A DNA stretch of 64,000 nt from Candidatus Moraniibacteriota bacterium (GTDB taxonomy: Bacteria; Patescibacteriota; Minisyncoccia; Moranbacterales; DUUL01), in the NCBI GenBank assembly GCA_034522495.1, contig JAXHLG010000002.1, forward strand, positions 165,583 to 229,582, read 5' to 3'. A program made the translations under genes and the position numbers. The notes beneath the pieces were generated by a model. It ran no database searches, was not told where the DNA came from, and saw only the letters and a program-made list of their open reading frames with translations. This document shows, piece by piece, positions 3,383 through 55,611 of the stretch (position 1 is the stretch's first letter; every line of letters starts with the position of its first letter).

Positions 3383-3620
3383 AAAATAAGATACAAGAAA
3401 CAAGAAACAAGGATACCCCGTAAAGTCGCTCCGCTCCAACGGGGCAGGCAAACAAATTCAAAATTCAAAATTCAAACGTTTGTTTCTTGGAATTTGATTA
3501 ATTGTTTCTTTTTTGGTAATTGTATCTTGTATCCTTGTGTCTTTAAAAATATCTTCTTAATTTTCACTTTTTATTTCACACTTTCAACTTTCACACTTTC
3601 AACTTTTAACTTTCAACTAG
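3383..3620. repeat. Heptamer-repeat hairpin (ACAAGAA... / ...TTGTATC) plus a TTTCAAC-type tandem repeat
   Basis: A/C-rich 5' arm and T/G-rich 3' arm. Resembles 23S insertion 7. Confidence 0.65.
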
Positions 3621-3621
3621 T

Positions 3622-3993
3622 ATGTATTACATCGGTATTGATTGGGGCGCCAAAGATTGCGGCATCGCTTGGGCGGATGAGGAAACCAGGATAGCGACCG
3701 CTTACAAGCAGGTTCCCAGAAAGGACTTGTTAAAGGAGTTGAAGCAACTCAATGACAGTTTCGGCATTGCGAAAATAGTTCTTGGCGTAAATTATGATAT
3801 TGATAAAGAAAAAAGAGCTAAGCTTTTGGAGTCTTTCAAGGAAATGGAGCTGGAGACGGAATTTGAAAACGAGTCCTTTTCCACTCTTCTTGCCCAGAGC
3901 AATTTGGCGGAAACCAAGGGCAGGAATATTTCCAAATACGACGATGCAGAGGCGGCCAGGATCATTTTGCAAAGCTGGTTGGACAAGCGCTAG
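3622..3993 (+). CDS. yqgF: YqgF/RuvX family RNase H-like nuclease
   Basis: IGIDWGAKDCGIA, NESFST and DAEAARIILQSWL motifs. Confidence 0.85.
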   Translation: MYYIGIDWGAKDCGIAWADEETRIATAYKQVPRKDLLKELKQLNDSFGIAKIVLGVNYDIDKEKRAKLLESFKEMELETEFENESFSTLLAQSNLAETKGRNISKYDDAEAARIILQSWLDKR

Positions 3994-4187
3994 AAAAAGT
4001 GGTAAAATTATGATAAGCTTTTTCAATAGCTGGCCTTGCGCGCTCTGACTCAACATTGAAATTTAGGCTAGCTTCCCAGTATTTAGAAGAGCGTATCATG
4101 AATCAAGTATTATGTATCATGCTTTTTAGAAAATTGAATAAAGAGCAAAGAGACGCAAATAATACAGCCCGCTTGAAAAAAATAGAC

Positions 4188-4545
4188 GAAACTGCTGCAA
4201 AATGTCATTCGGAACTTGATTGTCTGTTTCTGGCGGGATTCAGAATCTAATGAATGATTGCCAAAAAGGCCTTGTAAAGAGATTCTGATTTTCATCAGAA
4301 TGACAAATTTAGGAATTACGCGCTTGTCTCTTTATTGCCTAAAAAGAGAGAGCAAAGCAAGGTTTGGTGTTTGCATTCGATCGAAAAAATATTTTAGAAG
4401 CAAAAAGGATTTTCTATTAAAAATATCTTAACAAGCCTGAAAGGCAAGTGCGCATAAAACCAAGCCTTGCTTTGCTCTCGGCATTACCAGAGAGTAATCG
4501 CGTAATTCCTAAAATTATCAAAATAAGCAATTCTTCAGTGGTTTC
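4188..4545 (+). mobile_element. MITE family B copy with a nested MITE family A copy (4312..4509)
   Basis: B is flanked by an AATAGAC direct repeat. A has GGAATTACGCG...CGCGTAATTCC TIRs flanked by TA. Confidence 0.8.
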
Positions 4546-4580
4546 AATAGACCTAAACTCGTAACTTATAAATAATCAAA

Positions 4581-5372
4581 ATGGAACAAAAGAATCAGCC
4601 GAATTTTTCGGTGGTTATTCCGGCTTATAACGAAGCTTCCCGGGAAGATCAGATGAGGGATCATTTGGTTTCTATTCAAGAATATTTTGAGAAAAAAGGA
4701 ATGAACTATGAAATGATAGTGGTTTTGGACGGGCCTACGGATGAAACTCCGGGACTGGTAAAGAAGCATACCAAAGACATCAAAAATGTTCGGATAATTG
4801 ATAGAAAAAAGAATAAAGGAAAGGGATACAGCGTTCGAGAGGGGTTGCTGGCAGCCGAGGGCAAGTTCAGGCTTTTTACCGATATGGACGGAGCAACTCC
4901 CATCACTATGCTGGACAGGTTTTTTCCAAAATTTGAAGAAGGATCGGATATCGTGATTGGCTCGAGAGATTTGGAAGAGTCTGATGTGAAGGTCCATCAA
5001 CCCAAATGGAAAGAGCTTATGGGGGACGCCGGCAATCTGCTGATACAGTTCGTGGGAGGGCTCTACGGCACGAAAGACACCCAGTGCGGATTCAAGGCTT
5101 TTACACAGGAGGCGGTTAAAGATATTATTCCGCGGACAACAGTACAGAGGTGGGGTTTGGATTTTGAAATTCTTATCTTGGGAAAAAAGCTGGGTTATGA
5201 TATAAAGCAGGTTCCCGTGGAGTGGATCGACAGCGGAGACAGCACTGTCGGCATAAGCGGCTACATCAGCACTTTCAAGGATTTGTTCAAAGTCAGATGG
5301 AATTTGATGAAAGGGGTGTATCAGCTCAACAGGAAAGCGGAGAATATTGAAAAGACGGTAGAGGATAAATAA
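4581..5372 (+). CDS. GT2 glycosyltransferase (dolichyl-phosphate beta-glucosyltransferase-like)
   Basis: SVVIPAYNE, NKGKGYSVREG, FTDMD and DTQCGFK motifs. Confidence 0.9.
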   Translation: MEQKNQPNFSVVIPAYNEASREDQMRDHLVSIQEYFEKKGMNYEMIVVLDGPTDETPGLVKKHTKDIKNVRIIDRKKNKGKGYSVREGLLAAEGKFRLFTDMDGATPITMLDRFFPKFEEGSDIVIGSRDLEESDVKVHQPKWKELMGDAGNLLIQFVGGLYGTKDTQCGFKAFTQEAVKDIIPRTTVQRWGLDFEILILGKKLGYDIKQVPVEWIDSGDSTVGISGYISTFKDLFKVRWNLMKGVYQLNRKAENIEKTVEDK

Positions 5373-6779: not shown

Positions 6780-7074
6780 GATGTAGGAGATGTGAAAATT
6801 ATTCTAATTATTCTAATTGCTCTAATTATTCTAAAGTTGAAAGCGAGTTATTTTTTGGAATAAAAAGATATTTGTTGTATGTAAATGGAAAATAATTTGA
6901 AATTTGTAGAAACATTTCGAGATTAAGATGTTAAGAAATTCAGAAATTGATTCAAAAAAAATTAAAAATTTCCTTAGTGACAAGTGACCAGTGACAAGTG
7001 ACTGTGAATAAATAAGAGTTAACTTTCAGTTTGCCTAGGCATGCGCTATATTTAATTAAATCGCTTCCAACTTT

Positions 7075-8360: not shown

Positions 8361-8816
8361 GAATCAAGGTGTTTTAATATCGCTTGGGTATCTTTTATTC
8401 AGTCTGGAGTGTCTGGCGTTGTATTATGAATCATGTGTCATGAGTTATGTATCATGTATTATGAATCGAGTATCATGAATTTTGGGAAGTGGGAAATATG
8501 TTGCTAAACAGATTGCGTTTTTGTTGCGGTTAATCTCGTTAGGGGGGGGTATAGTTTAAATATTTGAATCATGTATTGAGTATCATATATCATGAATCGA
8601 GTATCATGAATTTTGGGAAGCGGGAAATACGTTGCTAAACAGATTGCTTTGTTGTTGCGGTTAGCTTGAAGTTCGACTTCTGCTGACGCAGAATTCAAAC
8701 TTCAGATTCTTATCCGGGTTCTCTCTCAAGAGGTAATTTATATGAATTACATAATATCAGTTAATAAAAACGATTAATTCTTGATTTCTATTAATTAAAT
8801 AATAAAATTAAAACAA

Positions 8817-9665: not shown

Positions 9666-9918
9666 AGGGTGAGAAATATTGCTCCATTGTTAAATTGCTC
9701 CATTGTTAATTGATAGTGGCAGAAATGTTATAGATATAGATAGATAAATTGATATAAAGTGGAAATTTATGGAAATTAGCGCTTCGCGCGAAACTTGTAG
9801 AAACTATTCGAAATTGCCTCTCAGAGGGTGATCGATTAAAATTGTTAAAATATTAAAATAATCCGCTCCATGTTAGAGATAGCGAATTTGAGGCGTTAAA
9901 GTGTTAATATGTTTAAAT

Positions 9919-14280: not shown

Positions 14281-14286
14281 TTTTTA

Positions 14287-15721: not shown

Positions 15722-15854
15722 GGGGGAAATTATTCTAATTATTCTAATTGCTCTAATTAAAAAAAATTGCTCAATTGTGTATTGGTGTATTTGTTTAATG
15801 GTATATTGGGGGGGTCATTGTTCCATTGTTCCATTGCTAAATTGTTAAGAGAAA

Positions 15855-16004
15855 GAAACCACTGAAGAATGTCATTCTGAGCTTGCTGTGTCCGCCTCTG
15901 GCGGGATTCAGAATCTAGGAATTTACAAAAATGGCTTGTTCAGGGAGATCCTGATTTTCATCAGGATGACAAAATCCTAAAATAATTCATTCTTCAGTGG
16001 CTTC
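15855..16004 (+). mobile_element. MITE family B copy
   Basis: GAAACCACTGAAGAAT...ATTCTTCAGTGGCTTC, with AAGAGAA on both sides. Confidence 0.8.
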
Positions 16005-16273
16005 AAGAGAAGTGGTTTAATGAGTGACTAGTGACGGGTGACAAGCGACTAGATTACTATGATATATATAGAAATTTATTGAAATTCATAGAAATTGCGA
16101 AATTGCCGCCCGGGGGGCGATCACCCTTTGGGTGGCCTCCTGGGGGGGGGGAATCTCTCTTTTGGGGAGGGATTTAAACCCGCCAAACACGGTTTGTCGT
16201 GTTTAAAAGGCTTAGTTTTGGGGAATAAATTGTTGAAAAAAATAGATTTTATTATAAATAAAAATTGAAAGTT

Positions 16274-23202: not shown

Positions 23203-24480
23203 ATGGCAAACATTAAACAAAAAATTCAGGACGCTCAGATTGATTTGATTCAAGAGCTGGGCATTGACAAGCTTTCCAAAGAAGAGCAGGAAAAAATTCT
23301 GCCTCAAATCGGGGAGGTAATTCAGCAGAAGGTGACGTTGAGAATTGTGGAAGAACTGCCGGAGGAGAAGCAGGAAGAATTTTCCAAGATTCTGGATGAG
23401 GCTCAGGAAAGCCCGGAAAAACTTGATAATTTTCTGGAGGAGAATATCCCTAATGTGAATGATATTGTTTTGGAGGAGATCGGCGATTACAAGAGGCAGG
23501 CGAAGGATTTTTTGGGGAAGAATATGGAAGAAAGGGATGAAAAGGGAGGAGATCAAGAAAGTCATCAGTCATCAGTCATCGGAGATCAGGAGAGGGAGAA
23601 AGAAGATAGTCACTCGTCACTCGTCACTGGTCACCGGGAGGGGGACGAAGGGGATAGTCATCAGTCATCGGTCATCGGGGATCGGGAAGAGGTTGAAGAT
23701 GGTGAAGGAGGGGTGCAAGTGAAGGCAAGTAAAGAAAGTAAAGAAAGTGAAGAAAGTGAAGAATCATCTAAACAGGAGAGTCATCGGTCATCAGTCACCG
23801 GGGATCGGGAGGAGGATAGTCACTCGTCACCGGTCACTGGTCACCAGAAAGAGGAGGAAGGGGTAGAAATGGGAGAAGAGCAGGAGAGTCATCCGTCACC
23901 GGTTGGCGGTCACCAGGAGGAGTCTAAAGATGAAGAAATGCAAGAGAAAAAACAGCCAGACGTTGAGTCAGATAAAAATGAGGAGCAAACTGATGCTGAA
24001 ACTGAGTCGGAGAGGATTAGGAAGGAGGCTTTGGAGGAGATTAAAAATAACGCCTCTAAAAAGAATCCTTTTGATAAGGCGGGCGAAGCAGGCGGTGCTG
24101 GACAAGAAGAGAAGGAAGAAGATGATCAGAGTGAAGGCGAGGAAGGAAGCCACTCGTCACCGGTTGCCGGTCGTCAAGGAGAGGATGAAGATGGCGGAGA
24201 AGGTGCGCAAGTGAAGGCAAGTGAAGAAAGTGAAGAATTATCTAAGCAGGAGAGTCATCAGTCATCAGTCACCGGGGATCAGGGAGAATCTGGAGAAGAG
24301 GAGGAAGAAGGAAAAAAAACTGATTCTCAAGAGCGGCCGGATACAAGCGATTTTACTAAAAGATTGAATGAATTAGAGGACAAAGGAAAAGAGGAAGGAG
24401 ATGAAGACTTGATCAAAAAGCATCAAGTGACTGATGATTCGGATAACGAGGTGGATATATCGGGAGAGCTTGGCAAGTAA
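23203..24480 (+). CDS. DUF5663-like N-terminal helical domain plus an acidic tail with repeat-derived SH(Q/S)S(S/P)V.G motifs
   Basis: The N-terminus ELGIDKLSKEEQEKIL...TLRIVEEL resembles a CPR family (from recall). About 8 in-frame 21-nt repeats follow. Confidence 0.7.
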   Translation: MANIKQKIQDAQIDLIQELGIDKLSKEEQEKILPQIGEVIQQKVTLRIVEELPEEKQEEFSKILDEAQESPEKLDNFLEENIPNVNDIVLEEIGDYKRQAKDFLGKNMEERDEKGGDQESHQSSVIGDQEREKEDSHSSLVTGHREGDEGDSHQSSVIGDREEVEDGEGGVQVKASKESKESEESEESSKQESHRSSVTGDREEDSHSSPVTGHQKEEEGVEMGEEQESHPSPVGGHQEESKDEEMQEKKQPDVESDKNEEQTDAETESERIRKEALEEIKNNASKKNPFDKAGEAGGAGQEEKEEDDQSEGEEGSHSSPVAGRQGEDEDGGEGAQVKASEESEELSKQESHQSSVTGDQGESGEEEEEGKKTDSQERPDTSDFTKRLNELEDKGKEEGDEDLIKKHQVTDDSDNEVDISGELGK

Positions 24481-24641
24481 TTGTTCTAATTAACCTAATT
24501 ACTCTAATTATTCTAAAAAGAGTAGGTGGAATTCATTTATTTGGTTGTTTTGGGATAAGTTTCTATTAATTTCTGGAAATTTCAACTAGCTTCAGGGACT
24601 TCTTTTATTTGTAATTTGGTTTTTGTAATTTGTAATTTTAT

Positions 24642-25103: not shown

Positions 25104-25456
25104 AAATTGCATTGTTAAATGGCTATTTCATATTAACATGTTATCATTTTAACATTTTAGCATGCAAGCAGTTGATATGGATTGATATATGGTAGAAATT
25201 GATTGAAATATGATTGATAAATGCTGATGTATGTTTGCTTTGGCAAGTTGGTTAAACTGGTAAATTACGTGTTTGTTTTAATCTTGTCGTATAGGAATTT
25301 CAAAAAATCCTATACACCGCTGATTTCACGCGAATTATCACGCAGATTTACGCGGGATGCTAAATGTGTGAAGCTTAATTTAATGTTAGAACGCAACACA
25401 AGTGCGTAATTCCTATAAATTATTAAGGTGGAGAAATATAAAAGTAAAAAAAAGAA

Positions 25457-31029: not shown

Positions 31030-31785
31030 TTGGCAGCGAGGGAAAAACACAAAACAAAAAACACAAAGCCCAAACAAAACACAAAGCAGAAAACACAAAA
31101 CACAATACTGCTGGAGCGAGCTTCCAGTCCGGCACAGAGGTTTCGAAAAACCAAAGGACCGGGCCAGAGGCCCGCTCCAGCAAAAATTAAATGGCTATTT
31201 CATATTAAAATGTTATCATTTTAACATTTTAGCATGCAAGCAGTTGATATGGATTGATATATAATAGATATAAGGTTGATATTTATTGATAAAATAGTTC
31301 TAAGTTTATAAAGTTCTGAGTTGAAAGGTGGGGAAACCTATTGAAATACAATGGATATATGGTTGATATATGGTAGAAATTGATGGAAACTTATGGAAAT
31401 TGGAATTGGGAAATATATATTTAAATCAGGATTTTAATATATATTTTTCTGAAGAGAGGATGCTTTTGGCAAAAAAACAAGGCTAAACCTTTTTTAATCA
31501 AGGTTTAGCCTTTAGCCTTTTGGATTGTTGCTTCCATTTTTAATTAATAACTGGTGTTGCGCAGTTATGTTGAATTAGCTTTTTCGAGGAAGAGCCTGAA
31601 GTTCGACTTCTGCGGATGCAGAAGTCTAACTTCAGGGCTAACCTTGCATATTCATATTGAACTCAAAAGAAGATATGTGCGCAACATCAGTTAATGGATT
31701 TCTCAATTTTCATTTTTGTCCGATTTTTCAATCAACGAATTCACGAATTTCTGTAATAAATTTTAGATCAATTAGATCAATTAGA

Positions 31786-32331
31786 TCAATCAGAATAATT
31801 AGAATAATTCATTTTCTTCCATCCCTTTATTCCTCCAACAAAAGCCAATCCTCCTGCCAGGGCGGTGGCAAGCTGGGGCCAGCTGAACATGTAGAGCAGT
31901 TGGCTGTTAAGGGAGCCGGCCAAGAGCAAGGAAGCTCCGTAAAGAAGGGCGAACTTGGCGATGCTGGCGGCTAAAGCGCCTTGCAGGACATTATTTTTCA
32001 GAAATTTAAAAGCGGTTATCAAGACTATATTGGAGAAAATTATGTAGGGGATCATAAGCGCCATGGGCGGAGGCAAGAGGCCTCTGGTCAAGGCGATGGA
32101 GGACGGGAGCGCTCCCACCAAAAAGGCGTTGGCAAGAGGGAGGCGATAGGCGGCGGCGAAGAGCGTCAGGTTGACGAGCGTTCCGGTTATCCATTGATTG
32201 CCCGGACTGTGGGCAAGCAACGCAGGGGCGATGATGGCAGCCAAGGTTAGGCCGACGGTCCAGGTTAGCTCCGAGGTTTGCCAGCCGGCCAGCGGCATAG
32301 ACTTAATCTGGGTGACGACTTTGTTTTTCAT
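31786..32331 (-). CDS. Integral membrane protein (ECF S-component-like), hydrogenase-associated
   Basis: Five to six TM helices; NQWITGTLVN and WPQLATALAGG. Co-oriented with the TM1266-type gene. Confidence 0.7.
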   Translation of the reverse strand: MKNKVVTQIKSMPLAGWQTSELTWTVGLTLAAIIAPALLAHSPGNQWITGTLVNLTLFAAAYRLPLANAFLVGALPSSIALTRGLLPPPMALMIPYIIFSNIVLITAFKFLKNNVLQGALAASIAKFALLYGASLLLAGSLNSQLLYMFSWPQLATALAGGLAFVGGIKGWKKMNYSNYSD

Positions 32332-34803: not shown

Positions 34804-35029
34804 TAAAAATAGTTCTAAGTTTATAAAGTTCTAAGTTCTGAGTTGAAAGGTAGGGAAACTTATTGAAATACCATAGATATATGGTTGATATATAATAGAA
34901 ACTGGTGGAAATTCATAGAAATTAAGAAATTACGAAATTGATTAGATGGTGACAAGTGACTAGTGACAAGTGACAAGTGACCAAGCTAGCTGTCAATTAC
35001 TAATATTTAATAACAAGTTGCTTTTTTAA

Positions 35030-37490: not shown

Positions 37491-38189
37491 ATGAATATAT
37501 TTGAACATTCGGAGGTGTTAACATTTTTATCCGAAAGAGCTGATGGAAACATGCGGCTTTTTGGGGGTGACAGCTCTGCGAATCGGGATAATTTTCTCCA
37601 GAAGAATAATTTAGGGGGATGTAAACTTGTTTCTGCTCGGCTTGTGCATGATTCGCGAGTGGAGGTGGTTGGCAAAGATAGTCAAATAATTATTGAAAAA
37701 GCAGATGGCTTGGTAGCGCGTCAAAAAGAGATAGTTTTGGCTGTAACGGTGGCGGATTGTTTGCCTATTTATTTATTTGACCCCAAAACCAAGGTTTGCG
37801 GTGTTTTGCATGCCGGATGGAGGAGTTTGAAAAAAGGAGTTATTCGGGAGGCGATGAGTCAAATGAAAAAAGCTTTCGGCGCTGAAGCAGATGATTTTTT
37901 GGCGGGTGTCGGAGTCGGCATTGGGGCTTGCCACTTTGAGGTAAAGGAAGATTTTCAGCAGAAGTTTGCCGAATTTCCTCAGTTCTTTGTTCGCAAGGAA
38001 GACAAAGTCTTTTTTGATCTTAAGGCCTTGGCAAGGTTTTTGCTAATCAAGCAAGGGGTCTTGGAAGAAAATATTGCCATTAAGCCAGAATGCACTTATT
38101 GCCTCGAAGATAATTATTTTTCATTTCGAAGAGACGGGGAAAAAGAAGGAGAGATTCAGGCGATGATGGCGGGGATAACGGTCATTTAA
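37491..38189 (+). CDS. pgeF: Peptidoglycan editing factor / purine nucleoside phosphorylase (YfiH/laccase domain)
   Basis: ADGL, VADCLPI, HAGWR and FSFRR motifs. Confidence 0.9.
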   Translation: MNIFEHSEVLTFLSERADGNMRLFGGDSSANRDNFLQKNNLGGCKLVSARLVHDSRVEVVGKDSQIIIEKADGLVARQKEIVLAVTVADCLPIYLFDPKTKVCGVLHAGWRSLKKGVIREAMSQMKKAFGAEADDFLAGVGVGIGACHFEVKEDFQQKFAEFPQFFVRKEDKVFFDLKALARFLLIKQGVLEENIAIKPECTYCLEDNYFSFRRDGEKEGEIQAMMAGITVI

Positions 38190-38630
38190 ACATACAAACA
38201 TTTAAACATTTAAACATGTAAACATCTAAGCATACAAACATTTAAACCCCGTAAATTCTCCCGCAAAGCGGGATCACACGGGGCAAGGCATCTAAGCATA
38301 CGAGCATCTAAGCATGCAAACATTTAAACACTCAGTATATTAGTTTATTTGTATAATGGGAGACGGGGGATTTTCGATTGCAGATTTTCGAATTGTGGTG
38401 AATTGCTTCCTTGCTTCATTGTTCAATTGTTAGATACTTATTGAAATTGATGGAAATTTATAGAAACTTATGGAAGCTGAAATTAGGAAATTGCGAAATT
38501 AGGAAATTCTGTTTTATTATTAAGAGAAATTGTTTGATTAGTGACCAGTGACAGATGACCAGTGACTAAGCTAATTGCCAACAACAAATGACTTTCTAAA
38601 CTTTCCACTTTATAACTTTAAAGCTTTGCT

Positions 38631-38966: not shown

Positions 38967-39177
38967 TCCAGAGGAATTACAGTTCAATAGAGCTTATCCA
39001 AAGCAATATTCTTTTTGGCTAAAGAGTTTGAGATAAAATTATTCTAATTATTCTAATTGATCTAATTATTCTAAAAAGTTTATTTTATGGATATTGGTTG
39101 AAACCTTTAAACATTAGTGAATTAAAAATCTTTTGGGGGCGTAGAAGAGATTACGTGCTTAAAAATTAAAAATAAGG

Positions 39178-39618: not shown

Positions 39619-39954
39619 GTCATTCGAACATTTAAACATTTAAACATACAAACATTTAAGCATACGAATATTTAAACATTTGGTGTATTAGTTTATTTGT
39701 ATAATGGGGGATTGGGTATTTTCGATTGCAGATTTTCGAATTGTGGTGAATTGCTTCATTGCTTCATTGTTCAATTGTTGGATACTTATTGAAATTGATG
39801 GAAATTTATAGATATTAAGAAATCACGAAATTGAGAAATTAGAAAATGGTTGAATTTTTTGGCTTGGGCGGAAGCAAAAGGGATAAAAGGAAAAAATTTT
39901 GCATTAAAAAAGAGCGTGTGCCGGTTGGCAGCGCTCTTTTTGGGCTTGATTTAT

Positions 39955-40842: not shown

Positions 40843-41247
40843 AAATACCTCCGGGGTTTGTTGTTGTCAAGGTTCTTCTTTGGGATGCTGAAGTCTAGCA
40901 TGGGAAGGGGGTTTGGTCAATGGGAGGATTTCGTTTATTAGTGTATTTGTGTAATAGGAGAATGGGAATTTTCGATTGCAGATTTTTGAATTGTGGTGAA
41001 TTGTTTCATTGCTTTATTGTTCAATTGTTGGGAAGTTGAATGATTGGTGAATTTGGGTAATTTGATGAAATTGTAGTCCATGGATCGGGCTGGAATCCCG
41101 TTCCAGCGTAAAAAAGAAAGGTGAGTTGAACGAGAAACTATTTGGTGGTATTATTTAATTTGTGCTCTTAAATACTCATGATGCTTGATTCATACTTCAT
41201 GATACAAAATACTTGATACATAACACATAACGCATTAATTTTTCATT

Positions 41248-44609: not shown

Positions 44610-45199
44610 TGATATTGACGTTTCGATGATTTGAAAATTTCAACTTTGCGGATTGGTTACGGACTAATATTTCCGCAGAATTAAAATGTTAATTTTTAGC
44701 CCTCAGGGGGTATTTGTTAAATGACGGAAACCAAAAAAGCCATAAGTAAAAATTCAAGTTAAGACGGTTTTGCAGTTTTCGTGCTGTCAAAACCGCATCA
44801 AGCGGTTTTTTTGTTGGGATTAATAGGTCTGACTTTGTAAAGTTCTAATTTTTTAAATTTTTGAAGGGTTCAGGAAGAAGGAGTTAACAGCTTAACTTTT
44901 TCTTCTTGGATCTTTGCTTGGGCGGCGGGTCTGAATAGCGCCAAGCGGAGAGGAACATTGAAAACAGAATAAAGTAGGTAAAATAAATTAAACTTAAGCT
45001 TTTGATAATAATAACAAATTCAATCTTTGTTATTTGCCAGTCAAAAGCAGCGGTGCTCAATCAAGGCATATGGTGGATACCTTGACTGAAGCAAGCGATG
45101 AAGGACGCGGCAGTCTGCGATATGCCTCGGGGAGGTGACAAGCAACCTTTGATCCGGGGATTTCCGAATGCGGCAACGCAGCGTTGTAAACCAGCGCTA

Positions 45200-45355
45200 C
45201 GCGCTGTTTCACAACGAATTCAAAAGTCAAAACTCAAAAGTCAAAACTATGGTGTCCCTGTGGGACGATTATTATATAAATCATCCCGAGAATTCGGGAT
45301 ACCATTAGCTTTGCGCTTTGAGTTCTAAGCTTTGAGTTCGCTGCGAAGCAGCGCG
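45200..45355 (+). other. 23S insertion 1 (about helix 10)
   Basis: Long hairpin; core shared with insertions 4, 5 and 6. Confidence 0.85.
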
Positions 45356-45410
45356 GGCTTACCCGAGGAACTGAAACATCTTAGTACTCGGAGGAAAAGA
45401 AAACAATATA

Positions 45411-45571
45411 TGCCGGTGCTTCGCACCGGAATGTCTAATTCCTAATTCCTAATTCCTAATAAAATTTCAAATGTTCAATGTCCAAATATTTGGATATTGT
45501 TAATTTCGTGTTTGTCATTTGTTTGGAAATTGGAAATTGGAAATTGGAAATTCCGGCGCGGAGCGCCGGTG
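45411..45571 (+). other. 23S insertion 2 (about E. coli position 228-230)
   Basis: Hairpin with (AATTCCT)n and (TTGGAAA)n arms. Confidence 0.85.
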
Positions 45572-45613: not shown

Positions 45614-45776
45614 CCGATGCGCAGCATCGGAAATTCTAAGCTCTAATCTCTAAACTCTAAACAAGTTCAAATTTTACAAATTCAAAACTCAAAACAGCAT
45701 TGTTTTGTTATTTGGATTTTGGAAATTGTTTAGGATTTAGGATTTAGGATTTAGAGTTTCCGCTGCTGCGCAGCGG
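45614..45776 (+). other. 23S insertion 3 (about helix 15/16)
   Basis: Hairpin with TCTAA-type and (TTTAGGA)n arms; related to insertions 8 and 10. Confidence 0.85.
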
Positions 45777-46084: not shown

Positions 46085-46261
46085 CTCGTGTCTCACTAGC
46101 GTTCGACACGATTAAAACTCAAAACTCAAAACTCAAAACGTTGGTGTCCCTGCGGGACGATTATTATATAAATCATCCCGAGAATTCGGGATACTGATGG
46201 ATTTGCACTTTGAGTTCTAAACTTTGAGTTTTATCAGTGGCGAGCGGCAGCGAGACACGGG
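46085..46261 (+). other. 23S insertion 4 (helix 25)
   Basis: Lies between GGAGC and GTGACTGCGT; (CTCAAAA)n arm. Confidence 0.85.
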
Positions 46262-46363: not shown

Positions 46364-46584
46364 TCGTTCGTATCTCATTGCATTCGATACAAACTCAATC
46401 TCAAAAGTCAAAACTCAAAAGTCTCAGCCCAAGGCTGATCCGCCTTTGGCGGAAAAACTATGGTGTCCCTGCGGGACGATTATTATATAAATCATCCCGA
46501 GAATTCGGGATACCGATGGATTTGCGCTTTGAGTTCTAAGCTTTGAGTTTGAGCGAAGTATCGAGTGAAGCGAGATACGAGCGA
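46364..46584 (+). other. 23S insertion 5 (about E. coli position 654)
   Basis: 151-bp core (46400-46550) identical to 47146-47296. Confidence 0.85.
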
Positions 46585-47108: not shown

Positions 47109-47330
47109 ACGCGTTCATATCTCATTGCATTCGATATGAACTAAACTCAAAAGTCAAAACTCAAAAGTCTCAGCCCAAGGCTGATCCGCCTTTGGCGGAA
47201 AAACTATGGTGTCCCTGCGGGACGATTATTATATAAATCATCCCGAGAATTCGGGATACCGATGGATTTGCGCTTTGAGTTCTAAGCTTTGAGTTTAGCG
47301 AATATCGAGCGTAGCGAGATATGAGCGCGT
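47109..47330 (+). other. 23S insertion 6 (helix 45)
   Basis: Lies between GAAGGTGCGG and GGTAGAGAAGCGTTC. Confidence 0.85.
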
Positions 47331-47504: not shown

Positions 47505-47685
47505 CCCCTGGCGTTTGCTGCGCAAACGCAATGATCAAGGAAACAAGAAACAAGGGTACAAACAATATATCAATAACCAATGTATAAATTTCAAACTGTT
47601 TGGGATTTGTTAATTGTAATTTTGAATTTGTTTGTTATTTGTCTCTTGTATCTTGTAATTTGCGTTTGTGTAACGAACGCTGGGG
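47505..47685 (+). other. 23S insertion 7 (about helix 52)
   Basis: (ACAAGAA)n and (TCTTGT)-type arms; resembles intergenic 3383..3545. Confidence 0.85.
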
Positions 47686-48024: not shown

Positions 48025-48184
48025 GCCGGCCAATGCTTCGCATTGGAAATCCTAAACTCTAGTCTCTAAATTCTAAACAAATTAAAATTCCAAAGTTCAA
48101 GACTTTATTGTTTTGTGCTTTTCGGTGATTGTTTAGGATTTAGGATTTTGAAATTAGGGCTTCCGATGCGGAGCGGCGGTCGGC
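48025..48184 (+). other. 23S insertion 8 (helix 63)
   Basis: Follows TTCGGGATAAGG; hairpin related to insertions 3 and 10. Confidence 0.85.
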
Positions 48185-49247: not shown

Positions 49248-49286
<39 letters not shown>

Positions 49287-49305
49287 CTCAAGATAAGGCA
49301 ACCAA

Positions 49306-49472
49306 CCGTGCATAGCACGGAAAATCTAAATTCTAATCTCTAAATTCTAAAATAAATTCCAATTTTTAAATTCAAAATTAAAAACTGTCTAGTTTGTAAT
49401 TTTGTTATTAGAATTTTGGTAATTGTTTAGGATTTAGGATTTTGAAATTTGGAAATTCCGTGCTATGCGCGG
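49306..49472 (+). other. 23S insertion 10 (helix 98)
   Basis: CCGTGCATAGCACGGAA...TTCCGTGCTATGCGCGG hairpin. Confidence 0.85.
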
Positions 49473-49760
49473 CTATAGTTTCCTGGAAGAAGACCAGGTT
49501 GATAGGCTTCAGGTGTAAGTGTGGTAACGCATTTAGCCGAGAAGTACTAATAAACTAAGGAGCATCACTGCTTTTGTTCTCAGGAATCTCCATATTTTAT
49601 GTGGCGATTACGGAGAACTGTGACTGGCAATCAAGAAAGATTGAAAGAATTATTGACTCCAATGCATTCCCATAATATATTTAAAGTGCATTAATAATAA
49701 GATATTGAAGGAGGGTGTACTTTTTATGCAAAACCCTCCTCGTTAACCGGAAATAGACTT

Positions 49761-51527: not shown

Positions 51528-51604
51528 GATCGAATTTTGTATCTAGTATCTAGAATCTAGAATAAATTGACTACTTCAGTCCTAATCTTCAGTCAACTTG
51601 TTTT

Positions 51605-52003
51605 ATGGTGGAGGAAAATCGAAGCTATTCCAAGATAAGTAAATTCACCGATTTAATAGCCTGGCAAGAAGGCCATAAGCTGGTCTTAATGGTATACAAG
51701 ATGACCGATGGTTTTCCAAGAGATGAAAAATACAATTTAATAGATCAGATGAGACGGTCATCCGTTTCAGTAACTTCAAATATAGCAGAAGGTTTTGCCA
51801 AAGTGTCTTCTAAAGATAAAAATCGCTTTTACAATATAGCGCAGACTTCTTTGATAGAACTTCAAAATCAACTAATTATTTGCAAAGATCTTAAATATTT
51901 AAGCAATGCCGATTTTGAAAAACTGGCCAATCAATCAATAAATTGCCACAAATTAATAAATGCTTTAATAAGATCGACTAGATTAAATAAATACAAAAAT
52001 TAA
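51605..52003 (+). CDS. Four-helix-bundle protein (23S rRNA intervening-sequence protein family)
   Basis: F.DL.AWQ, FP.DEKY.L.DQMRRSSVSVTSNIAEG and S..EL..QL motifs. Confidence 0.92.
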   Translation: MVEENRSYSKISKFTDLIAWQEGHKLVLMVYKMTDGFPRDEKYNLIDQMRRSSVSVTSNIAEGFAKVSSKDKNRFYNIAQTSLIELQNQLIICKDLKYLSNADFEKLANQSINCHKLINALIRSTRLNKYKN

Positions 52004-52101
52004 TTTTCTCAAAAGTATTCAAGATTTCCCGTCAACTTTTAAATTTTTATAGAATCGGGATCCCGCAAAGCGGTGACAAGATTCATAATTCAAAATTCAA
52101 T

Positions 52102-53028: not shown

Positions 53029-53234
53029 TTTGCAACTGATTTTATTTAAGTAGCCAGTATGCCCAAGGTTCAACCTTCGGCTAGCCGAAGGTTGAACCTT
53101 GACTTTCCTTTTATCATATTCTGTGAAATTATTTATCCCCCAAACAATAAAACAATTTGGCAATGGAACAATGGGATAACAAAAACTACTATTTTCAATC
53201 ATCCTTATATATGTTTAAATAAAAACAAGGGGAT

Positions 53235-53363
53235 GAAATCACTGAAGAATTGATTATTTTGATATTTTGTCATTCTGATGAAAATCAGAATCTCTTTATA
53301 AAGCCCTTTTTGGCAATCATCAGACTCTGAACCAATTTCAGAATGACATTCTTCAGTGGTTTC
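53235..53363 (-). mobile_element. MITE family B copy (reverse orientation)
   Basis: GAAATCACTGAAGAAT...ATTCTTCAGTGGTTTC; GGGAT on both flanks. Confidence 0.75.
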
Positions 53364-53434
53364 AGGGATACAAAAATTACCAATTACCAATTACAAATTA
53401 CTAACACCATAACTCTAGAAAGGCAGGTGAAAAT

Positions 53435-53848
53435 ATGAACGAAAAAAATCAAAATCCTCAAGAGCCGAAAAAAGAAGAGCAGGCTCAGCCGGAACAACAG
53501 CAGCAAGCCCAAGAGCAAAAAGCTCCGGAAGGCAATGTCTCCAGCAACGCCAAGACTTGGAGCATCGTGGGATACATTTTCCCCATCCTGTTTTTCATTC
53601 CTTTGGTAATGGAAGACTTGAAGAACAACAAATATGCCAAGTTCCACGCCAACCAACAGCTGGTATTATTGCTAGTTGCCATAGCGGTTAACATTGTCGG
53701 CGGTATTATACCTATCTTGGGATGGTTTATCATTCTCCCCCTCGGATCGTTGGCCATAATCGTGCTTGCTGTCATGGGCATCATCAACGGAGTTAAAGAA
53801 AAAGCCAAACCGCTTCCGCTCATCGGCGGTATCGAGATAATCAAATAG
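53435..53848 (+). CDS. DUF4870-like membrane protein
   Basis: KFHANQ.L, IPILGW and GIING....KPLPLIG motifs. Confidence 0.8.
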   Translation: MNEKNQNPQEPKKEEQAQPEQQQQAQEQKAPEGNVSSNAKTWSIVGYIFPILFFIPLVMEDLKNNKYAKFHANQQLVLLLVAIAVNIVGGIIPILGWFIILPLGSLAIIVLAVMGIINGVKEKAKPLPLIGGIEIIK

Positions 53849-54063
53849 CCGCCTCCAACTTTTTCAAACTTTTACTTCTTGAAACAGAACAGATGTTTGT
53901 TTTTGTTTAAATACCCAACTTCGCGCAAATGTTGGGTATTAAACAGGAACAAATTATAGTCTCAGCCTGAAGTTCGAATTCTGCCTCAGCAGAAGTCGAA
54001 CTTCAGGCCCTCCTTCAAAAAGCAAATTCGCCAAAATTGCTTATCGTTTATTAAACAAAACCA

Positions 54064-55356
54064 ATGAAAAAAACCAAAATCACCGCCACCATCGGGCCGG
54101 CCTCGGAAAAAACGGCCACCCTCAAAAAGATGATGGAAGCCGGCATGGATGTATGCCGCCTCAACTTCTCCCACGGCGAACAAGCCTGGCACAAAAAGAC
54201 AGTCAAAAACATCCGCAAGGCCTCCAAAGAAGCCGGCAAAAGCGTCGGCATCATAGCCGACATCCAAGGCCCCCGCATCCGAGTAGCCAACAAAAGATCC
54301 CTCAAGCTGGAAAAAAAAGAAAAAGTCTTCGTAACCGACGAAAATTGCCCCCATACCTACGGCTTCAAAAAAGAGCTTATTCTCGACTGGGACAGCTTCT
54401 ACCAATACGCGGAAGTGGGAGAAAAAATATTCATCGAAGACGGTCTCAAAGAACTGGAAACAATCGACAAGAAAAAAGACGGATGCGTGGCCGAAGTCAT
54501 CACCGGAGGAAAAGTCGATCCCCACAAGGGTGTTAACATCCCCAAAGCCTCCTCCCACATGGGATTCCTCACCGACAAAGACATCAAAGACCTGGAATTC
54601 ATCATCCCCCAGGGCGTGGACTTTGTTGCCGCCTCCTTCGTCTCCAACAGAAAACAGCTCCAAGGCCTCAAACAGCACATCAAAAGAATCCTCAAAAAAG
54701 AAAAGAATTTCCACAAGATGGAAAAAGGCTCTCAGCAAACCAAAAACAGCTCTCTGGCTTACCCCTGGATAGTCTCCAAAATTGAAACCAGAAAAGCCAT
54801 CCAAAACCTGGACGCCATCATCGACGAATCCGACGCCATCATGGTCGCCCGCGGGGACTTGGCCATCGAAATGCCTCAGGAAGAAGTGGTGGTCCTGCAA
54901 AAGAAAATCGTCAACAAATGCCTCAAAGCCAAAAAACCCGTCATCGTAGCCACCCAGATGTTCGCTTCCATGGTGGAAAAACCCCGCCCCACCCGCGCCG
55001 AAATCTCCGACGTAACCAACGCCGTTGTTGACTGCGCCGACTCCATCATGTTTAGCAACGAAACCGCCGTCGGCAAATACCCGCTCAAGACAATAGAAAC
55101 CGCCGCCCGCGTTATCCAAAACGCCGAAAAATCTCCCTACAACGACAAGCCATTGAAAAAGCTCGGAAAATTTGCTAAAATCATAACTCGCCTGAGAAAG
55201 CAGAAGAAAAGCGGCAAAGAGAAAACAATCAGCATCGCCGGCCTCGGCGAAGCCAAAGGCTACTCCGCCCTCCGCCAAGAAGACGTTCATTTAAAACTCA
55301 AGACCAAGGACAAGAATATCAAGAGAAAGGGAAGCTTGATTTGGGGAATAGAATGA
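54064..55356 (+). CDS. pyk: Pyruvate kinase (C-terminal domain appears reduced)
   Basis: TKITATIGPAS, RLNFSHG, SKIE, MVARGDL, ATQM, PTRAE.SDV and S.ETA.GKYP motifs. Confidence 0.95.
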   Translation: MKKTKITATIGPASEKTATLKKMMEAGMDVCRLNFSHGEQAWHKKTVKNIRKASKEAGKSVGIIADIQGPRIRVANKRSLKLEKKEKVFVTDENCPHTYGFKKELILDWDSFYQYAEVGEKIFIEDGLKELETIDKKKDGCVAEVITGGKVDPHKGVNIPKASSHMGFLTDKDIKDLEFIIPQGVDFVAASFVSNRKQLQGLKQHIKRILKKEKNFHKMEKGSQQTKNSSLAYPWIVSKIETRKAIQNLDAIIDESDAIMVARGDLAIEMPQEEVVVLQKKIVNKCLKAKKPVIVATQMFASMVEKPRPTRAEISDVTNAVVDCADSIMFSNETAVGKYPLKTIETAARVIQNAEKSPYNDKPLKKLGKFAKIITRLRKQKKSGKEKTISIAGLGEAKGYSALRQEDVHLKLKTKDKNIKRKGSLIWGIE

Positions 55357-55611
55357 CAATTTTCAATTGAAGGAAGCTCAAAACGCAAAACGCAAAAGGC
55401 AAAGCCACAGCTCAAAGCTTAAAGCAAAAACACAAAACACAGATATCACAAAGCCCAAACAAAACACAAAACACAGTTACCAAAACACAAACGTTTTCTC
55501 TAGCTGGAGCGGGCTTCTAGCCCGGTCTATTGGTTTATTTTTTATACTGGTATAAATTAAGGGAAGTTAAGAACTATTCAAAATTTAAAATTTGAAATTC
55601 AAAATTAACTT

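Follow-up and report, generated by a model that had tools for sequence, protein, structure and literature searches.

A described counterpart of the elements considered here is the 23S rRNA intervening sequence of Coxiella, in which three tandem GACAGAT heptamers lie upstream of the S23p ORF, their number differs between strains, and the intervening sequence is cleaved by RNase III (PMC4990558). This heptamer array beside an S23p ORF parallels the cassettes described below. Two further reports concern heptamer repeats that lie near stop and start codons with a preference for four units (PMC4692102), and TAACTGA repeats for which a regulatory role was suggested (PMC4679880). We found no paper that ties a PF05635 cassette design to genome-wide arrays.

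[quoted passage not shown] The window analysed here is a stretch of 64,000 nt from the 1.33-Mb genome of a Candidatus Moraniibacteriota bacterium, for which the original prediction proposed that a single dispersal process places 7-, 8- and 9-mer modules in spacers, rRNA helices and a coding sequence. This interpretation is partly supported. The modules of the spacers, the 23S gene and one coding sequence do belong to one system, which, as predicted, is neither CRISPR nor REP nor a classic IS; the dispersal itself, with a mobilising enzyme and a target rule, is hypothetical. The modules are probably the terminal inverted arms of small insertable PF05635 cassettes, together with the debris of such cassettes.

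The presence of recurrent short tandem modules far above chance is confirmed. Tandem Repeats Finder (TRF) returned 2373 rows for the genome (603, 435 and 229 of periods 7, 8 and 9), against 373 (45, 65 and 51) for a third-order Markov copy and 407 (53, 51 and 55) after a 100-nt local shuffle. After merging, 428 of 524 period-7 and 311 of 386 period-8 arrays (>80%) are intergenic by a crude longest-ORF scheme of gene calling; arrays are found in 391 of 799 spacers and cover 12.3% of intergenic as against 1.8% of coding bases. The arrays comprise 670 distinct canonical units, and four copies is the modal length for both period 7 (114/275) and period 8 (110/232). The recurrence of 14 units (three copies, ≤2 mismatches) was compared with that of 20 shuffled units each: AAACATTT occurs at 38 loci, ACTTTTG at 25, AGTTTTG at 21, AAACAATG, ATTGTTCC and AGGATTT at 13 each, AAGGATAC at 11, and AATTATTCT and AGTGACA at 10 each, with composition-matched controls averaging 0-0.5 loci. 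Four of the 14, namely AATTTTG (control maximum 11), ATCTTGT, TCATGAA and AAGTTCT, did no better than their controls. The 10 AATTATTCT arrays have no flanks in common, but they share a single internal position for a variant unit, the penultimate one in eight of them (GCT in four, GAT in two, AAC in two). Such shared internal variants, along with identical cores at four 23S sites, show that the arrays were copied by descent and did not arise by independent slippage.

In a complete cassette, a PF05635 gene lies between two inverted arrays that are reverse complements of each other; each arm spans ~28-35 nt and usually comprises four to five 7- or 8-nt units, sometimes in nested layers. The genome has 19 PF05635 matches, of which 18 exceed the Pfam cut-off, and their flanks can be read as inverted arms of a family common to related genes. 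A PF05635 flank has on average 0.78 period-7/8 arrays within 200 nt, versus 0.34 for all genes, and such arrays stand on both sides of 8 of 18 PF05635 genes, versus 114 of 1071 in the whole gene set (Fisher p = 3e-4). The full cassette of the window (51528..52101, + strand; Pfam E = 4e-36) lies between lemA and an M48 peptidase gene. Its PF05635 gene (51605-52003) is preceded by (ATCTAGA)3.3 at 51541-51563 and followed by a small hairpin and then by (CAAAATT)3.4 at 52077-52100. Its outermost GAATTTTG and CAAAATTC are inverted; its inner arms are only weakly complementary, which counts against the cassette reading. Hairpins of the form arm-loop-arm without an ORF, as well as single arms, draw on the same unit families as the cassette arms: among 863 arrays away from PF05635 genes, 250 have an exact cassette-arm unit (shuffled-unit control mean 25.8, maximum 33) and 539 lie within one mismatch of one (control mean 237.7). 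The remaining 324 match no extant arm even with one mismatch, which again counts against this reading. No same-family partner, inverted or direct, occurs within 600 nt of 648 of 898 period-7/8 arrays, so that the cassette descent of most arrays would follow from unit family alone. It also weighs against the cassette reading that we saw neither a transposition event nor a target duplication nor an enzyme.

The association extends to other genomes. Around the best 80 of 569 homologous loci, drawn from many phyla, 123 period-7/8 arrays lie ≤125 nt from the PF05635 match (in 19,874 bp; 6.19 per kb), as against 0.24-0.59 per kb at 125-1500 nt; among 72 loci with both flanks, an array occurs within 250 nt on one side in 68 and on both sides in 46, and in many of the latter the units look reverse complementary by eye (uncounted). 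Arm units follow the protein clade, with higher protein identity accompanied by smaller arm-unit distance (Spearman rho -0.30 for the 3655 pairs among 86 loci; none of 500 permutations reached it). Among relatives, in correlations over related genomes made without phylogenetic correction, PF05635 count tracks array density (period-7+8 arrays per 10 kb; rho 0.59 in 29 genomes), the length of the 23S gene (rho 0.73 in 18) and the number of arrays inside that gene (rho 0.63 in 15). Array density follows PF05635 copy number but not that of the Y1 transposase (RAYT), which shows no correlation with array density (rho 0.15, p = 0.45) and a weak one with 23S length (rho 0.51, p = 0.03). Individual genomes depart from the trend: G027 and G040 have 13 PF05635 matches each yet low sampled densities (0.44 and 1.13 per 10 kb), and G037 has three yet the highest density among the relatives (2.88 per 10 kb). 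Compared across relatives, the orthologous lemA-M48 spacer shows full, decayed, arms-only and empty cassette states. The cassette is present with different arms in G000 and G001, and G033 has a PF05635 match between both genes (known from the match alone); G012 retains a 3' ORF remnant with arms, G002 an array-like remnant of ~80 nt, G032 a plain terminator, and eight further relatives have short gaps.

The 23S gene is 4521 nt long against a model of 2925 positions, and nine insertions in it are ORF-less arm-loop-arm hairpins with long folds (z -4.0 to -10.7) that match 10-36 places outside the gene, including the cassette flanks named here; occupancy of the sites varies among 15 relatives. 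Insertions 1 (45185..45334; z = -5.7; 28 outside matches), 4 (46088..46248), 5 (46408..46544) and 6 (47111..47327; extra outer stems; z = -9.0) have a core of ~85 nt in common, which in insertion 1 stands between a (TCAAAAG)n arm and the right arm. The arms are (CTAATTC)3.7 and (TTGGAAA)4.3 in insertion 2 (45408..45569; z = -10.7), (CTAAACT) and (TTTAGGA) in insertion 8 (48034..48175; z = -9.8), and (AAATTCT)n and (TTTAGGA)n in insertion 10 (49311..49475; z = -8.2). Those of insertion 3 (45618..45758), (AAACTCT)4.6 and (TTTAGGA)3.7, correspond to the sequences flanking the PF05635 gene at C2:603367, and those of insertion 7 (47509..47680; z = -8.5), (GAAACAA)n and (TTGTATC)n of the AAGGATAC family, resemble the cassettes at C2:331991 and C2:1016813. 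All nine lie on the + strand. The predicted likeness of insertion 7 to spacer 3383..3545 is borne out (local alignment score 47, 58/64 identical; maximum of 200 shuffles 28). This spacer is itself an ORF-less arm-loop-arm hairpin (fold z = -4.3), with TRF arrays (AAACAAG/AAGGATAC)n on the left and (TTGTATC)n on the right; its interior contains (AAATTCA)3 as well as a short GC-rich hairpin that starts at 3416 (CCCCGTAAAG...CGGGG). The segment 55377-55422, which had been taken for the reverse complement of a 3' insertion arm, scores just 19-22 in that comparison and 30-32 when aligned directly with insertions 1, 4 and 6 at their 5' arm. It belongs to a partnerless single-arm stack (55374..55491, + strand; no fold, z = -1.0) of (CAAAACG)3.6, GCCACAGCTCAAAGC and (AAAACAC)n, resembling the left arms of these insertions and of cassettes C2:303685 and C2:392519.

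Nearly all modules proposed for the spacers of the window were recovered where stated, by TRF and by direct reading. The (AATTATTCT)n module occurs on the + strand at 6797..6834 (four units, the third a variant AATTGCTCT, 17 nt after a stop codon), at 24478..24516 (as (TAATTATTC)4.3, starting at the stop codon of a DUF5663-protein gene) and at 39037..39074 (four units, including the variant AATTGATCT), and also at 15728; the array at 31763..31809 (- strand) carries the AATTGATCT variant in reverse complement. Four units of (AGTGACN)n lie at 6976..7002 (+), 72 nt upstream of a small multidrug-export gene, and the module recurs at 16023, 34949 and 38540, with a weaker imperfect copy at 29555 seen by eye only. 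The (CATTGTTC/ATTGCTCC)n module is present at 9678, 15816, 28274 and 41746, the first being (ATTGCTCCATTGTTAA)2 (9678..9709), which follows the stop codon of an aldolase gene. Two (TCATGAA/TGTATCA)n arrays occupy 8420..8607. The (AGTTCTA)n module stands at 34811, and its proposed copies at 28635, 31295 and 36812 are just 2-3 imperfect units. Solo arrays are (TTTCAAC)6 just upstream of ruvX (3574..3618) and (AATTACC)3.9 adjoining a MITE (53375..53401). Within the DUF5663 gene, eight in-frame copies of a module of ~33 nt (at 23555..24271, +), each (AGTCAYC)3 plus GGNGATC, encode SHxSSVxGD-like repeats in the acidic tail of the protein.

Elsewhere the modules form linear mosaics. The one at 15728..16106 (no significant fold, z = -1.2) reads (AATTATTCT)3.6, (GTGTATTG)4, (CATTGTTC)2.6, an inserted MITE, (AGTGACT)4, (TATAGAAATT)3 and (GAAATTGC)2; the genome holds REP-like palindromes and a MITE of ~70 copies. 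That at 34811..34981 consists of (AGTTCTA)4.6, (AGAAATTA)3 and (GTGACAA)4.7, and the orthologous spacer of the congener is just ~47 nt. The AAACATTT module is found, as proposed, at 38183 and 39627: at 38183..38330 (+) as (CATNTAAA)8, beginning inside the final codons and stop codon of the preceding gene, broken by a GC-rich hairpin (38247-38286) and followed by (GCATCTAA)n, and at 39627..39845 as (AAACATTT)7, 8 nt after a stop codon. Mosaic A (38334..38566; no significant fold, z = +0.8) is a stack of single arms from different cassette families, (ATTGCTTC)3, (TTATGGAAAT)4, (GAAATTAG)4 and (AGTGACC)4; a second copy follows (AAACATTT)7 (38330 and 39686, 95% over 127 nt) and a partial third lies at 40936..41029 (89% over 94 nt). 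Mosaic B, (CATTTTAA)n plus (ATATGATTGAA)n at 25110..25230, recurs at 31187..31262 (98.7% over 76 nt). Whole mosaics therefore recur as claimed, although only at neighbouring places within a few kb; genome-wide, recurrence is confined to single modules of 25-40 nt.

An explanation that we regard as unlikely is that the arrays are host cis-acting elements, such as sites for RNA- or DNA-binding proteins, 3'-end or termination signals or leader elements, in which PF05635 cassettes merely land or which they borrow. Of 36 intergenic (AAACATNT)n arrays, 30 follow a stop codon in the sense direction, 18 at a distance of no more than 32 nt, and they have a conserved TCATNT lead-in; random decay does not predict this placement, which hints at a site rule or function. 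The mode of four copies and the placement at stop and start codons are comparable to those in the report on heptamer repeats (PMC4692102), and the role proposed for TAACTGA repeats (PMC4679880) points the same way. The congener G002 retains the homologous module order, CATTTAAR ... GAAATTAG ... [AT]GTGAC, in its orthologous spacers, so that much of the pattern is old and either maintained or remodelled in place; this persistence fits conservation as well as debris. Against a host role, most of 29 unit families lack orientation bias to transcription or replication (five reach a nominal p < 0.05 for transcription, none of which would survive correction), each of dozens of unrelated units would need its own reader, and the AAACATTT family, which gives 60 pattern matches in this genome, gives only 0-4 in each of 26 family members and none in 22 of these. 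Arrays also occur in rRNA helix tips and in frame in coding DNA, where a host cis-function makes no sense.

We consider it improbable to a still greater degree that another mobile system moved the arrays, be it RAYTs with REP-like palindromes, MITEs with their IS partners, or a single DGR-type reverse transcriptase. The REP-like palindromes and the ~70-copy MITE are accompanied by three Y1-transposase matches, IS transposases lie at 9933-11141 and 58206-59009, one reverse transcriptase adjoins an Avd-like gene, and PF05635 is related to Avd (bAvd match, E = 2e-6). The weak correlation of RAYT count with 23S length is compatible with this proposal; array density, however, does not follow RAYT count. 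The arrays have neither the palindrome-plus-tag form of REPs nor the common ends of MITEs, and of the 19 PF05635-like genes just one, the most divergent, adjoins the reverse transcriptase. Least credible is in-place replication slippage on chance seeds, with unit sharing due to base composition. Homologous arrays do vary in copy number, within the genome and relative to the congener, the arrays are as A+T-rich as the spacers, and the distinct units are many. Yet composition-matched shuffled units form arrays at ~0 loci versus 10-38 for real units, shuffled genomes have a tenth of the arrays, distant loci have internal variant units in common, and the ~85-nt core is identical at four 23S sites. 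The refuting case named with the original prediction, independent slippage products with no enrichment near a candidate mobiliser gene family, does not hold: arrays are enriched, tenfold across phyla, beside the four-helix-bundle (PF05635) genes. As the sole explanation slippage is contradicted by unit recurrence, variants and the 23S core, and it survives only as a source of copy number.

Under the cassette reading, cassettes would be copied to new sites, and deletion between or beside the arms might then remove the gene, leaving hairpins and solo arms that would accumulate as linear mosaics, while replication slippage would tune the number of units at each site. RNase III, which cleaves known rRNA intervening sequences, could also cleave the transcribed arm stem, so that insertions at the tips of rRNA helices or in untranslated regions would do almost no damage; within coding DNA, the survivors would be only in-frame multiples of 21 nt in disordered tails. 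The cassette reading would thus tie intergenic short repeats to 23S insertions, two long-unexplained features of bacterial genomes.

Tandem Repeats Finder returns 161 rows in the window, which carries a 23S rRNA gene (45050-49570), a 5S gene, a tRNA-Ser gene and ordinary housekeeping genes, and together with direct reading it locates nearly all of the short repeat modules at the places named in the original prediction. Plain coordinates are those of the window, whereas those prefixed C1: or C2: are contig coordinates of the whole genome (1.33 Mb, three contigs, 41% G+C), in which the window spans C2:165583-229582; GC skew and gene strand point to a replication origin close to the ends of C2 and a terminus at about 695 kb. 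The genome as a whole yields 2373 rows with peaks at periods 7 (603), 8 (435) and 9 (229), as against 373 rows in a third-order Markov copy and 407 after a 100-nt local shuffle, with about 45-65 rows per period in each control. Judged by gene calls from a crude ORF finder scored on codon usage (1071 genes on C2, 78.5% coding), 428 of 524 merged period-7 arrays (82%) and 311 of 386 period-8 arrays are intergenic; the period-9 arrays differ, being intergenic in just 48 of 201 cases. Arrays cover 12.3% of the intergenic bases versus 1.8% of the coding bases, and at least one period-7-10 array is present in 391 of the 799 spacers of 50 nt or more. They are typically short, with a median length of 24-27 nt and a median of 3.4 copies. 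Among arrays with a score of at least 36 the modal copy number is four (114/275 for period 7 and 110/232 for period 8), three-copy arrays being censored by the score threshold, so that the steep fall above four copies is the one feature of this distribution that can safely be read. A BLAST partner in another spacer exists for 45% of the intergenic bases, in part due to unrelated MITEs and REP-like palindromes, and among the assembled contigs of two DNA runs made from a single sample there are breaks and jumps at shared modules, with no array-length variants among those listed.

The window contains one gene of the PF05635 family of 23S rRNA intervening-sequence proteins, which are Avd-like four-helix bundles (51605-52003; E = 4e-36). 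It lies between lemA and an M48 peptidase gene and has heptamer arrays on both sides, a configuration that we term a cassette, with the flanking arrays as its arms; the inner arms of this particular copy are poorly matched. There are 19 PF05635 matches genome-wide, 18 of them over the Pfam cut-off. Period-7/8 arrays within 200 nt number 0.78 per PF05635 flank compared with 0.34 for all genes (C2), and arrays occur on both sides of 8/18 PF05635 genes versus 114/1071 genes overall (Fisher p = 3e-4). Thus, the association with a four-helix-bundle family suggested in the original prediction is indeed seen. Reading of the flanks reveals inverted arms of the form (CTCAAAA)n...(TTTTGAC)n at C2:392519, (GTTCTAA)n...(CTTAGAA)n at C2:936542, (GTCACTN)n...(AGTGACN)n at C2:941410, 942591 and 945723, (AAACATNT)n...(ANATGTTT)n at C2:756516 and 768082, and (AAGGATAC)n...(GTATCCTT)n at C2:331991, 1016813 and 601649. 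Related PF05635 proteins in the tree have the same arm family, and the unit families of the arms are those that the original prediction had listed from the spacers. As a separate observation, the PF05635 genes at C2:1351, C2:360878 and C1:64-363 are identical to one another, and several spacers of C2:5104-8026 are 100% identical, in inverted orientation, to those of 354569-357491, which indicates a recent large inverted duplication.

The arrays that lie away from PF05635 genes draw on the same vocabulary: 250 of 863 use an exact cassette-arm unit (shuffled-unit control mean 25.8, maximum 33), and 539 of 863 do so within one mismatch (control mean 237.7). The linear mosaics, in which several arrays are stacked in one spacer, can therefore be read as stacked single arms of different cassette families. 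The recurrence of whole mosaics holds locally, one being found three times within 3 kb (38330, 39686 and 40936) and another twice, 6 kb apart (25110 and 31187); genome-wide, recurrence is limited to single modules of 25-40 nt in both orientations. Transposition of whole mosaics was accordingly rejected, their copies lying only 3-6 kb apart. The spacer 3383-3545 and nine element-type insertions in the 23S gene form long hairpins with arrays as their arms (z -4.0 to -10.7), and the five regions of linear mosaic folded with ViennaRNA (38183-38575, 25110-25230, 6780-7010, 15722-16110 and 55357-55500) fold no better than shuffles (z -2.7 to +1.2). Among 898 period-7/8 arrays, a partner of the same family within 600 nt is inverted for 155 and direct for 121, with neither being found for 648.

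Other small modules are embedded in this landscape. The GC-rich hairpin CCCCGTAAA...CGGGGCA has 40 copies genome-wide, 17 of which lie within or beside arrays at fixed junctions and about twenty within a larger conserved repeat. Eight copies of (AGTCAYC)3-GGNGATC lie in frame within the gene 23203-24480 (DUF5663 plus an acidic tail), in agreement with the earlier suggestion that modules enter even a coding sequence. Very small dispersed repeats are reportedly inserted into heptamer arrays in Nostoc (Elhai and colleagues, 2008), and Rickettsia palindromic elements are repeat modules tolerated in frame inside proteins. The GC-rich hairpins at fixed junctions (17/40) recall the former and the in-frame modules recall the latter, with the likeness being one of behavior only, as their sequences are unrelated to the modules here. 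About 20 copies of the GC-rich hairpin CCCCGTAAAACTACTTCG..CAACGGGGCAA are central to a conserved repeat of at least about 100 nt (cctatac.ccgctgatttyacgcggatta...gcgcagatttaygcggga; C2, e.g. 119381, 160203 and 306988), a dispersed element separate from the arrays. Arrays enclose each of two small conserved genes without a Pfam match (38631-38966 and 39178-39618); both genes are also found, in unchanged order, in the congener G002 (nucleotide identity 78% and 74%).

The simplest alternative source of such arrays is independent slippage at each site. There are 670 distinct units genome-wide, and 4 of 14 units tested (AATTTTG, ATCTTGT, TCATGAA and AAGTTCT) occur no more often than their shuffled controls; yet specific units recur. 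Counting three copies with at most two mismatches, AAACATTT is found at 38 loci, ACTTTTG at 25, AGTTTTG at 21, AAACAATG, ATTGTTCC and AGGATTT at 13 each, AAGGATAC at 11, and AATTATTCT and AGTGACA at 10 each, against means of 0-0.5 loci for twenty same-composition shuffles per unit. The ten AATTATTCT arrays, among which no common flanking sequence was found, have one internal position (the penultimate in 8/10) at which a variant unit stands, and this variant defines subfamilies. This common internal architecture implies that whole arrays were copied, and, combined with the recurrence of units relative to shuffles, it rules out independent slippage as the whole story. The pattern (AAACATTT)3 has 60 matches in the source genome (reversed control, 0 matches) versus 0-4 in 26 family members, 22 of which are without any; hence, unit families have been amplified lineage by lineage. 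One family has a distinctive placement: of 36 intergenic (AAACATNT)n arrays, 30 follow a stop codon in the sense orientation, the distance being within 32 nt for 18, and those so placed have a common TCATNT lead-in. This does not fit neatly with random decay of cassettes, from which both arms are expected equally often. For most of the 29 unit families tested there is no orientation bias relative to transcription or replication, and a general strand-specific role in RNA was dropped for this reason.

The 23S rRNA gene itself is 4521 nt long versus a 2925-position model, and its alignment to the nearly insertion-free 23S gene of the relative G036 (2996 nt) places insertions at ten site groups. 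Nine of these are array-armed hairpins, whereas the tenth (48637-48724) is without a copy elsewhere, and its site is filled in all 14 compared relatives. Each of the nine matches 10-36 places outside the 23S gene, and insertions 1, 4, 5 and 6 have a common core of about 85 nt. Several can be related to particular cassettes: insertions 3, 8 and 10 match the flanks of the PF05635 gene C2:603367, insertion 7 matches the arms of C2:331991 and C2:1016813, insertions 1 and 6 match places near C2:303685, and insertion 4 corresponds to the left arm of C2:392519. Across 15 relatives the sites are variably occupied, with site 755 filled only in the source genome (G000) and its congener G001, and site 228 only in G000, G012 and G026. 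Neither of the two ORFs within the 23S gene has a Pfam match. Elsewhere, at C2:1230521-1231174, a 103-nt period is repeated in tandem at least seven times, and each copy includes a 36-nt stretch 89% identical to part of insertions 5/6 (CTCAGCCCAAGGCTGATCCGCC...).

The spacer between lemA and the M48 peptidase gene provides a decay series at a single locus. It contains a cassette in G000 and also in the congener G001, where the gene is divergent and the arms, (TTTGTAA)n...(AATTACN)n, are different; a PF05635 match also falls between the two genes in G033, from another family (as placed by match position rather than by reading of the DNA), and G008 probably has a cassette there too, its contig ending at this point. 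Only the arms and the 3' end of the ORF are present in G012, about 80 nt of array-like sequence in the congener G002, and a plain terminator (GC-hairpin and T-run) in G032, while the gap is short in G003, G004, G007, G009, G013, G025, G026 and G028. At other loci the orthologous spacers of G002 are much shorter than those of G000 and contain fewer copies, but the module types follow one another in the same order.

To place these cassettes in a wider phyletic setting we used a one-genome-per-species scan by alignment of four proteins, which yielded 569 confirmed relatives. The best 80 of the 569 loci, mainly from one PF05635 clade and picked by protein similarity rather than by repeats, span many Patescibacteria lineages, Gammaproteobacteria, Bdellovibrionales, Omnitrophota, Elusimicrobia, Ignavibacteria, Dehalococcoidales, Atribacteria and Kiritimatiellales. 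In these best 80 of 569, 123 period-7/8 arrays occur in the 19,874 bp within 125 nt of the match (6.19 per kb), versus 0.36, 0.24, 0.59, 0.58 and 0.50 per kb in the further bins from 125 to 1500 nt. Where both 250-nt flanks are available, an array lies within 250 nt on one side or more at 68 of 72 loci and on both sides at 46 of 72; the flanking arrays typically have 4-5 copies, and many of the 46 two-sided pairs are, by eye and uncounted, reverse complements. Comparison of 29 same-order relatives of the 8-mer-armed gene C2:768082 showed that the six closest (63-70% identity) have period-8 or -16 arms, whereas more distant ones (54-62%) mostly have period-7, -14 or -21 arms; an ACAT core is retained throughout the arms, and six loci are without an array of the period-7/8 type. 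Across the 86 loci that have an arm upstream, the more alike two proteins are, the smaller is the distance between their arm units (Spearman rho -0.30, 3655 pairs; reached by 0/500 permutations). As judged from the sequences, this co-divergence indicates that the gene and its arms evolve as one unit; co-divergence alone is not equivalent to binding.

A quantitative co-variation is also apparent among 40 relatives of the source genome, which have 0-13 PF05635 matches versus its 19. In samples of 30-80 kb from each of 29 relatives, arrays per 10 kb correlate with PF05635 count (rho 0.59, p = 7e-4), and G000, with 3.9 arrays per 10 kb, tops both measures. PF05635 count likewise correlates with 23S length (rho 0.73, n = 18; 0.67 without G000) and with the arrays inside the 23S gene (rho 0.63, n = 15), kinship being ignored in all these figures. 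G027 and G040, with many PF05635 genes and few sampled arrays, and G037, which is the reverse, are exceptions. RAYT genes, a family also named in the original prediction and counted as matches to the Y1 transposase domain (Y1_Tnp), served as a control: array density does not track their count (rho 0.15, p = 0.45), which is related weakly to 23S length (rho 0.51, p = 0.03, kinship ignored).

Several other repeats and genes share the window with the arrays. A MITE-like high-copy family (4230-4540, 11264-11600, 13490-13640, 53232-53365 and 61590-61732) matches more than 70 other spacers; it forms nested and composite copies, is distinct from the tandem modules, and has one copy inside the mosaic 15722-16110. 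Two families of REP-like perfect palindromes, CTGAAGTTCGA...TCGAACTTCAG and AAGGTTCAACCTT...AAGGTTGAACCTT, occur at 8665-8705, 53965-54005 and 57190-57230, and also at 5520-5570 and 53060-53100, with about 10-20 other spacers containing each. A GIY-YIG domain ORF (55611-56054; E = 1e-15) directly follows the tRNA-Ser gene, which it overlaps as called, its real start probably being further downstream. Genes typical of mobile elements include an IS4-type DDE transposase (9933-11141, - strand), a weak integrase-core fragment (19314-20114) and an rve-type integrase or transposase (58206-59009, - strand). A T4SS-pilin-like protein and a TraG/VirD4/HerA-like ATPase are encoded at 889-2211 and 25457-27985, and two large proteins without a Pfam match (16265-18706 and 20280-23183) lie near them.

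In comparing these elements with established repeat classes we found that, as the original prediction held, the features of CRISPR, REP and classic IS elements are lacking. CRISPR arrays have 24-48-nt repeats and unique spacers of similar size, whereas the units here are 7-10 nt, head to tail, with a median of 3.4 copies and no spacers. REP/BIME elements, imperfect palindromes of 20-40 nt that have a conserved tag and an abundance tied to a RAYT gene, were rejected, as the mosaics have no fold above that of shuffles and array density is unrelated to Y1_Tnp counts. MITE or IS elements, with copies of uniform length, common ends in the form of terminal inverted repeats, and target duplications, were rejected, as arrays of one family are without common flanks. 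The Avd-like nature of the proteins raises the possibility of a diversity-generating retroelement, and the layout of one is seen at C2:1306256-1308196, where the sole reverse-transcriptase match (RVT_1; a 399-aa open frame) adjoins the most divergent PF05635-like gene (C2:1307852). The other 18 lie elsewhere, and therefore a retroelement route for them is unsupported. Ideas that came from reading the sequence, namely that arrays might act as multiple -35-like boxes, Rho-loading sites or all-frame stop traps, were dropped.

Short tandemly repeated repetitive (STRR) heptanucleotide sequences were reportedly described in heterocystous cyanobacteria by Mazel and colleagues in 1990. Like these and other prokaryotic long simple-sequence repeats, the present arrays comprise many intergenic 7-nt arrays in several unit families per genome with no known function, and the 524 period-7 arrays, 82% intergenic, agree with the classic definition, the 386 period-8 arrays being outside it. 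They differ from STRR in their phylum, their A+T-rich units, the near parity of 8-/9-nt with 7-nt units, and their tie to a gene family. The GGGNATC heptamers of Xanthomonas and Nostoc (Rehm et al. 2015; PMC4692102) are similarly genome-wide, over-represented in non-coding DNA, located near stop codons and upstream of ORFs, and biased to four units; they were explained by G-quadruplex formation. In contrast to those G-rich repeats, the units here have no G runs and yet peak at four copies as well, so that quadruplexes cannot be the explanation in this genome, and the idea was rejected. More broadly, a four-unit preference in A+T-rich arrays without G runs means that the preference does not need quadruplexes, and that explanation is thereby questioned. 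The TAACTGA direct repeats of marine Beggiatoaceae, cyanobacteria and Bacteroidetes (MacGregor 2015; PMC4679880) are likewise intergenic heptamer arrays (2-6 copies) near gene ends, with a patchy phylogenetic spread that suggests horizontal transfer by no evident mechanism. They differ in having one dominant unit rather than hundreds, and the available portion of that paper proposes a translational role and draws no link to PF05635.

The closest parallel is with the 23S rRNA intervening sequence (IVS) in helix 45 of Coxiella burnetii, which carries the S23p gene and is cut by RNase III, and with the ORF-bearing IVS of Leptospira and Salmonella cited in the same source (PMC4990558). In both systems terminal inverted repeats pair into a long stem with the PF05635/S23p gene in its loop, and elements occupy the tips of 23S rRNA helices; tandem heptamers adjoin the ORF in Coxiella, where their number varies among strains, and the distribution is sporadic, with a transposon origin being suspected (PMC4990558). 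Here too, 23S helix insertions vary in occupancy among relatives and have terminal inverted repeats that form a long stem. Unlike the IVS, the gene-bearing copies lie between protein genes (18 matches over the cut-off genome-wide), whereas the nine rRNA copies are without an ORF and yield no PF05635 or other Pfam match; the arms are wholly 7-/8-nt arrays, and the 1.3 Mb contain 18-19 copies of the gene together with roughly 900 arrays. Heptamer arrays (PMC4692102, PMC4679880), rRNA intervening sequences with a PF05635 ORF, and CPR rRNA insertions encoding this domain (PMC4990558, PMC11270868) are already in print. A literature search found no paper tying the PF05635 family to genome-wide arrays, the Coxiella IVS paper being, in its available part, the only one among the literature found to note heptamers beside the ORF (PMC4990558). 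New in this genome are the scale reached, arms of 8 nt that go with the protein clade, the tracing to named cassettes of nine copies without an ORF in a single 23S gene, a locus with a decay series, and a quantitative co-variation among relatives for which RAYT genes served as the control.

These features would be accommodated by a scheme in which cassettes are copied to new sites, some of them subsequently lose the gene, and the remaining arrays change by slippage in place. An RNase III gene is present in the genome, and cutting of the stem by this enzyme might render the rRNA insertions harmless. A PF05635-type protein is known to form a pentameric ring. A more speculative and rather improbable extension is that PF05635 proteins are sequence-specific partners of their own arms, directing cassette copying or RNA processing, and that heptamer arrays throughout the bacteria, including STRR, are traces left by a single class of mobile element that is both widespread and undescribed. 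Were they such partners, the ring would read about one unit per subunit, fitting arrays of four to five units, and the protein clade would set the unit length (7 or 8 nt) and the core word, such as ACAT in the C2:768082 clade and AGTRAC in the C2:941410 clade.

Tandem heptamer arrays have been recorded for decades in cyanobacteria, Xanthomonas, Beggiatoaceae and others with no accepted origin, and we know of no function assigned to the PF05635 "intervening-sequence protein" family since its discovery in rRNA inserts. In this genome these two open questions are joined, the arrays and the family being parts of one element. The scale is unusual: the arrays take up about 12% of the intergenic DNA and reach half of all spacers, and one 23S gene has gained 1.5 kb. 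There are testable handles in the cognate protein-arm pairs (7- versus 8-nt units), the one-locus decay series, and relatives with few or no copies. The finding bears on the annotation of Patescibacteria and helps explain low coding density and oversized rRNA genes.
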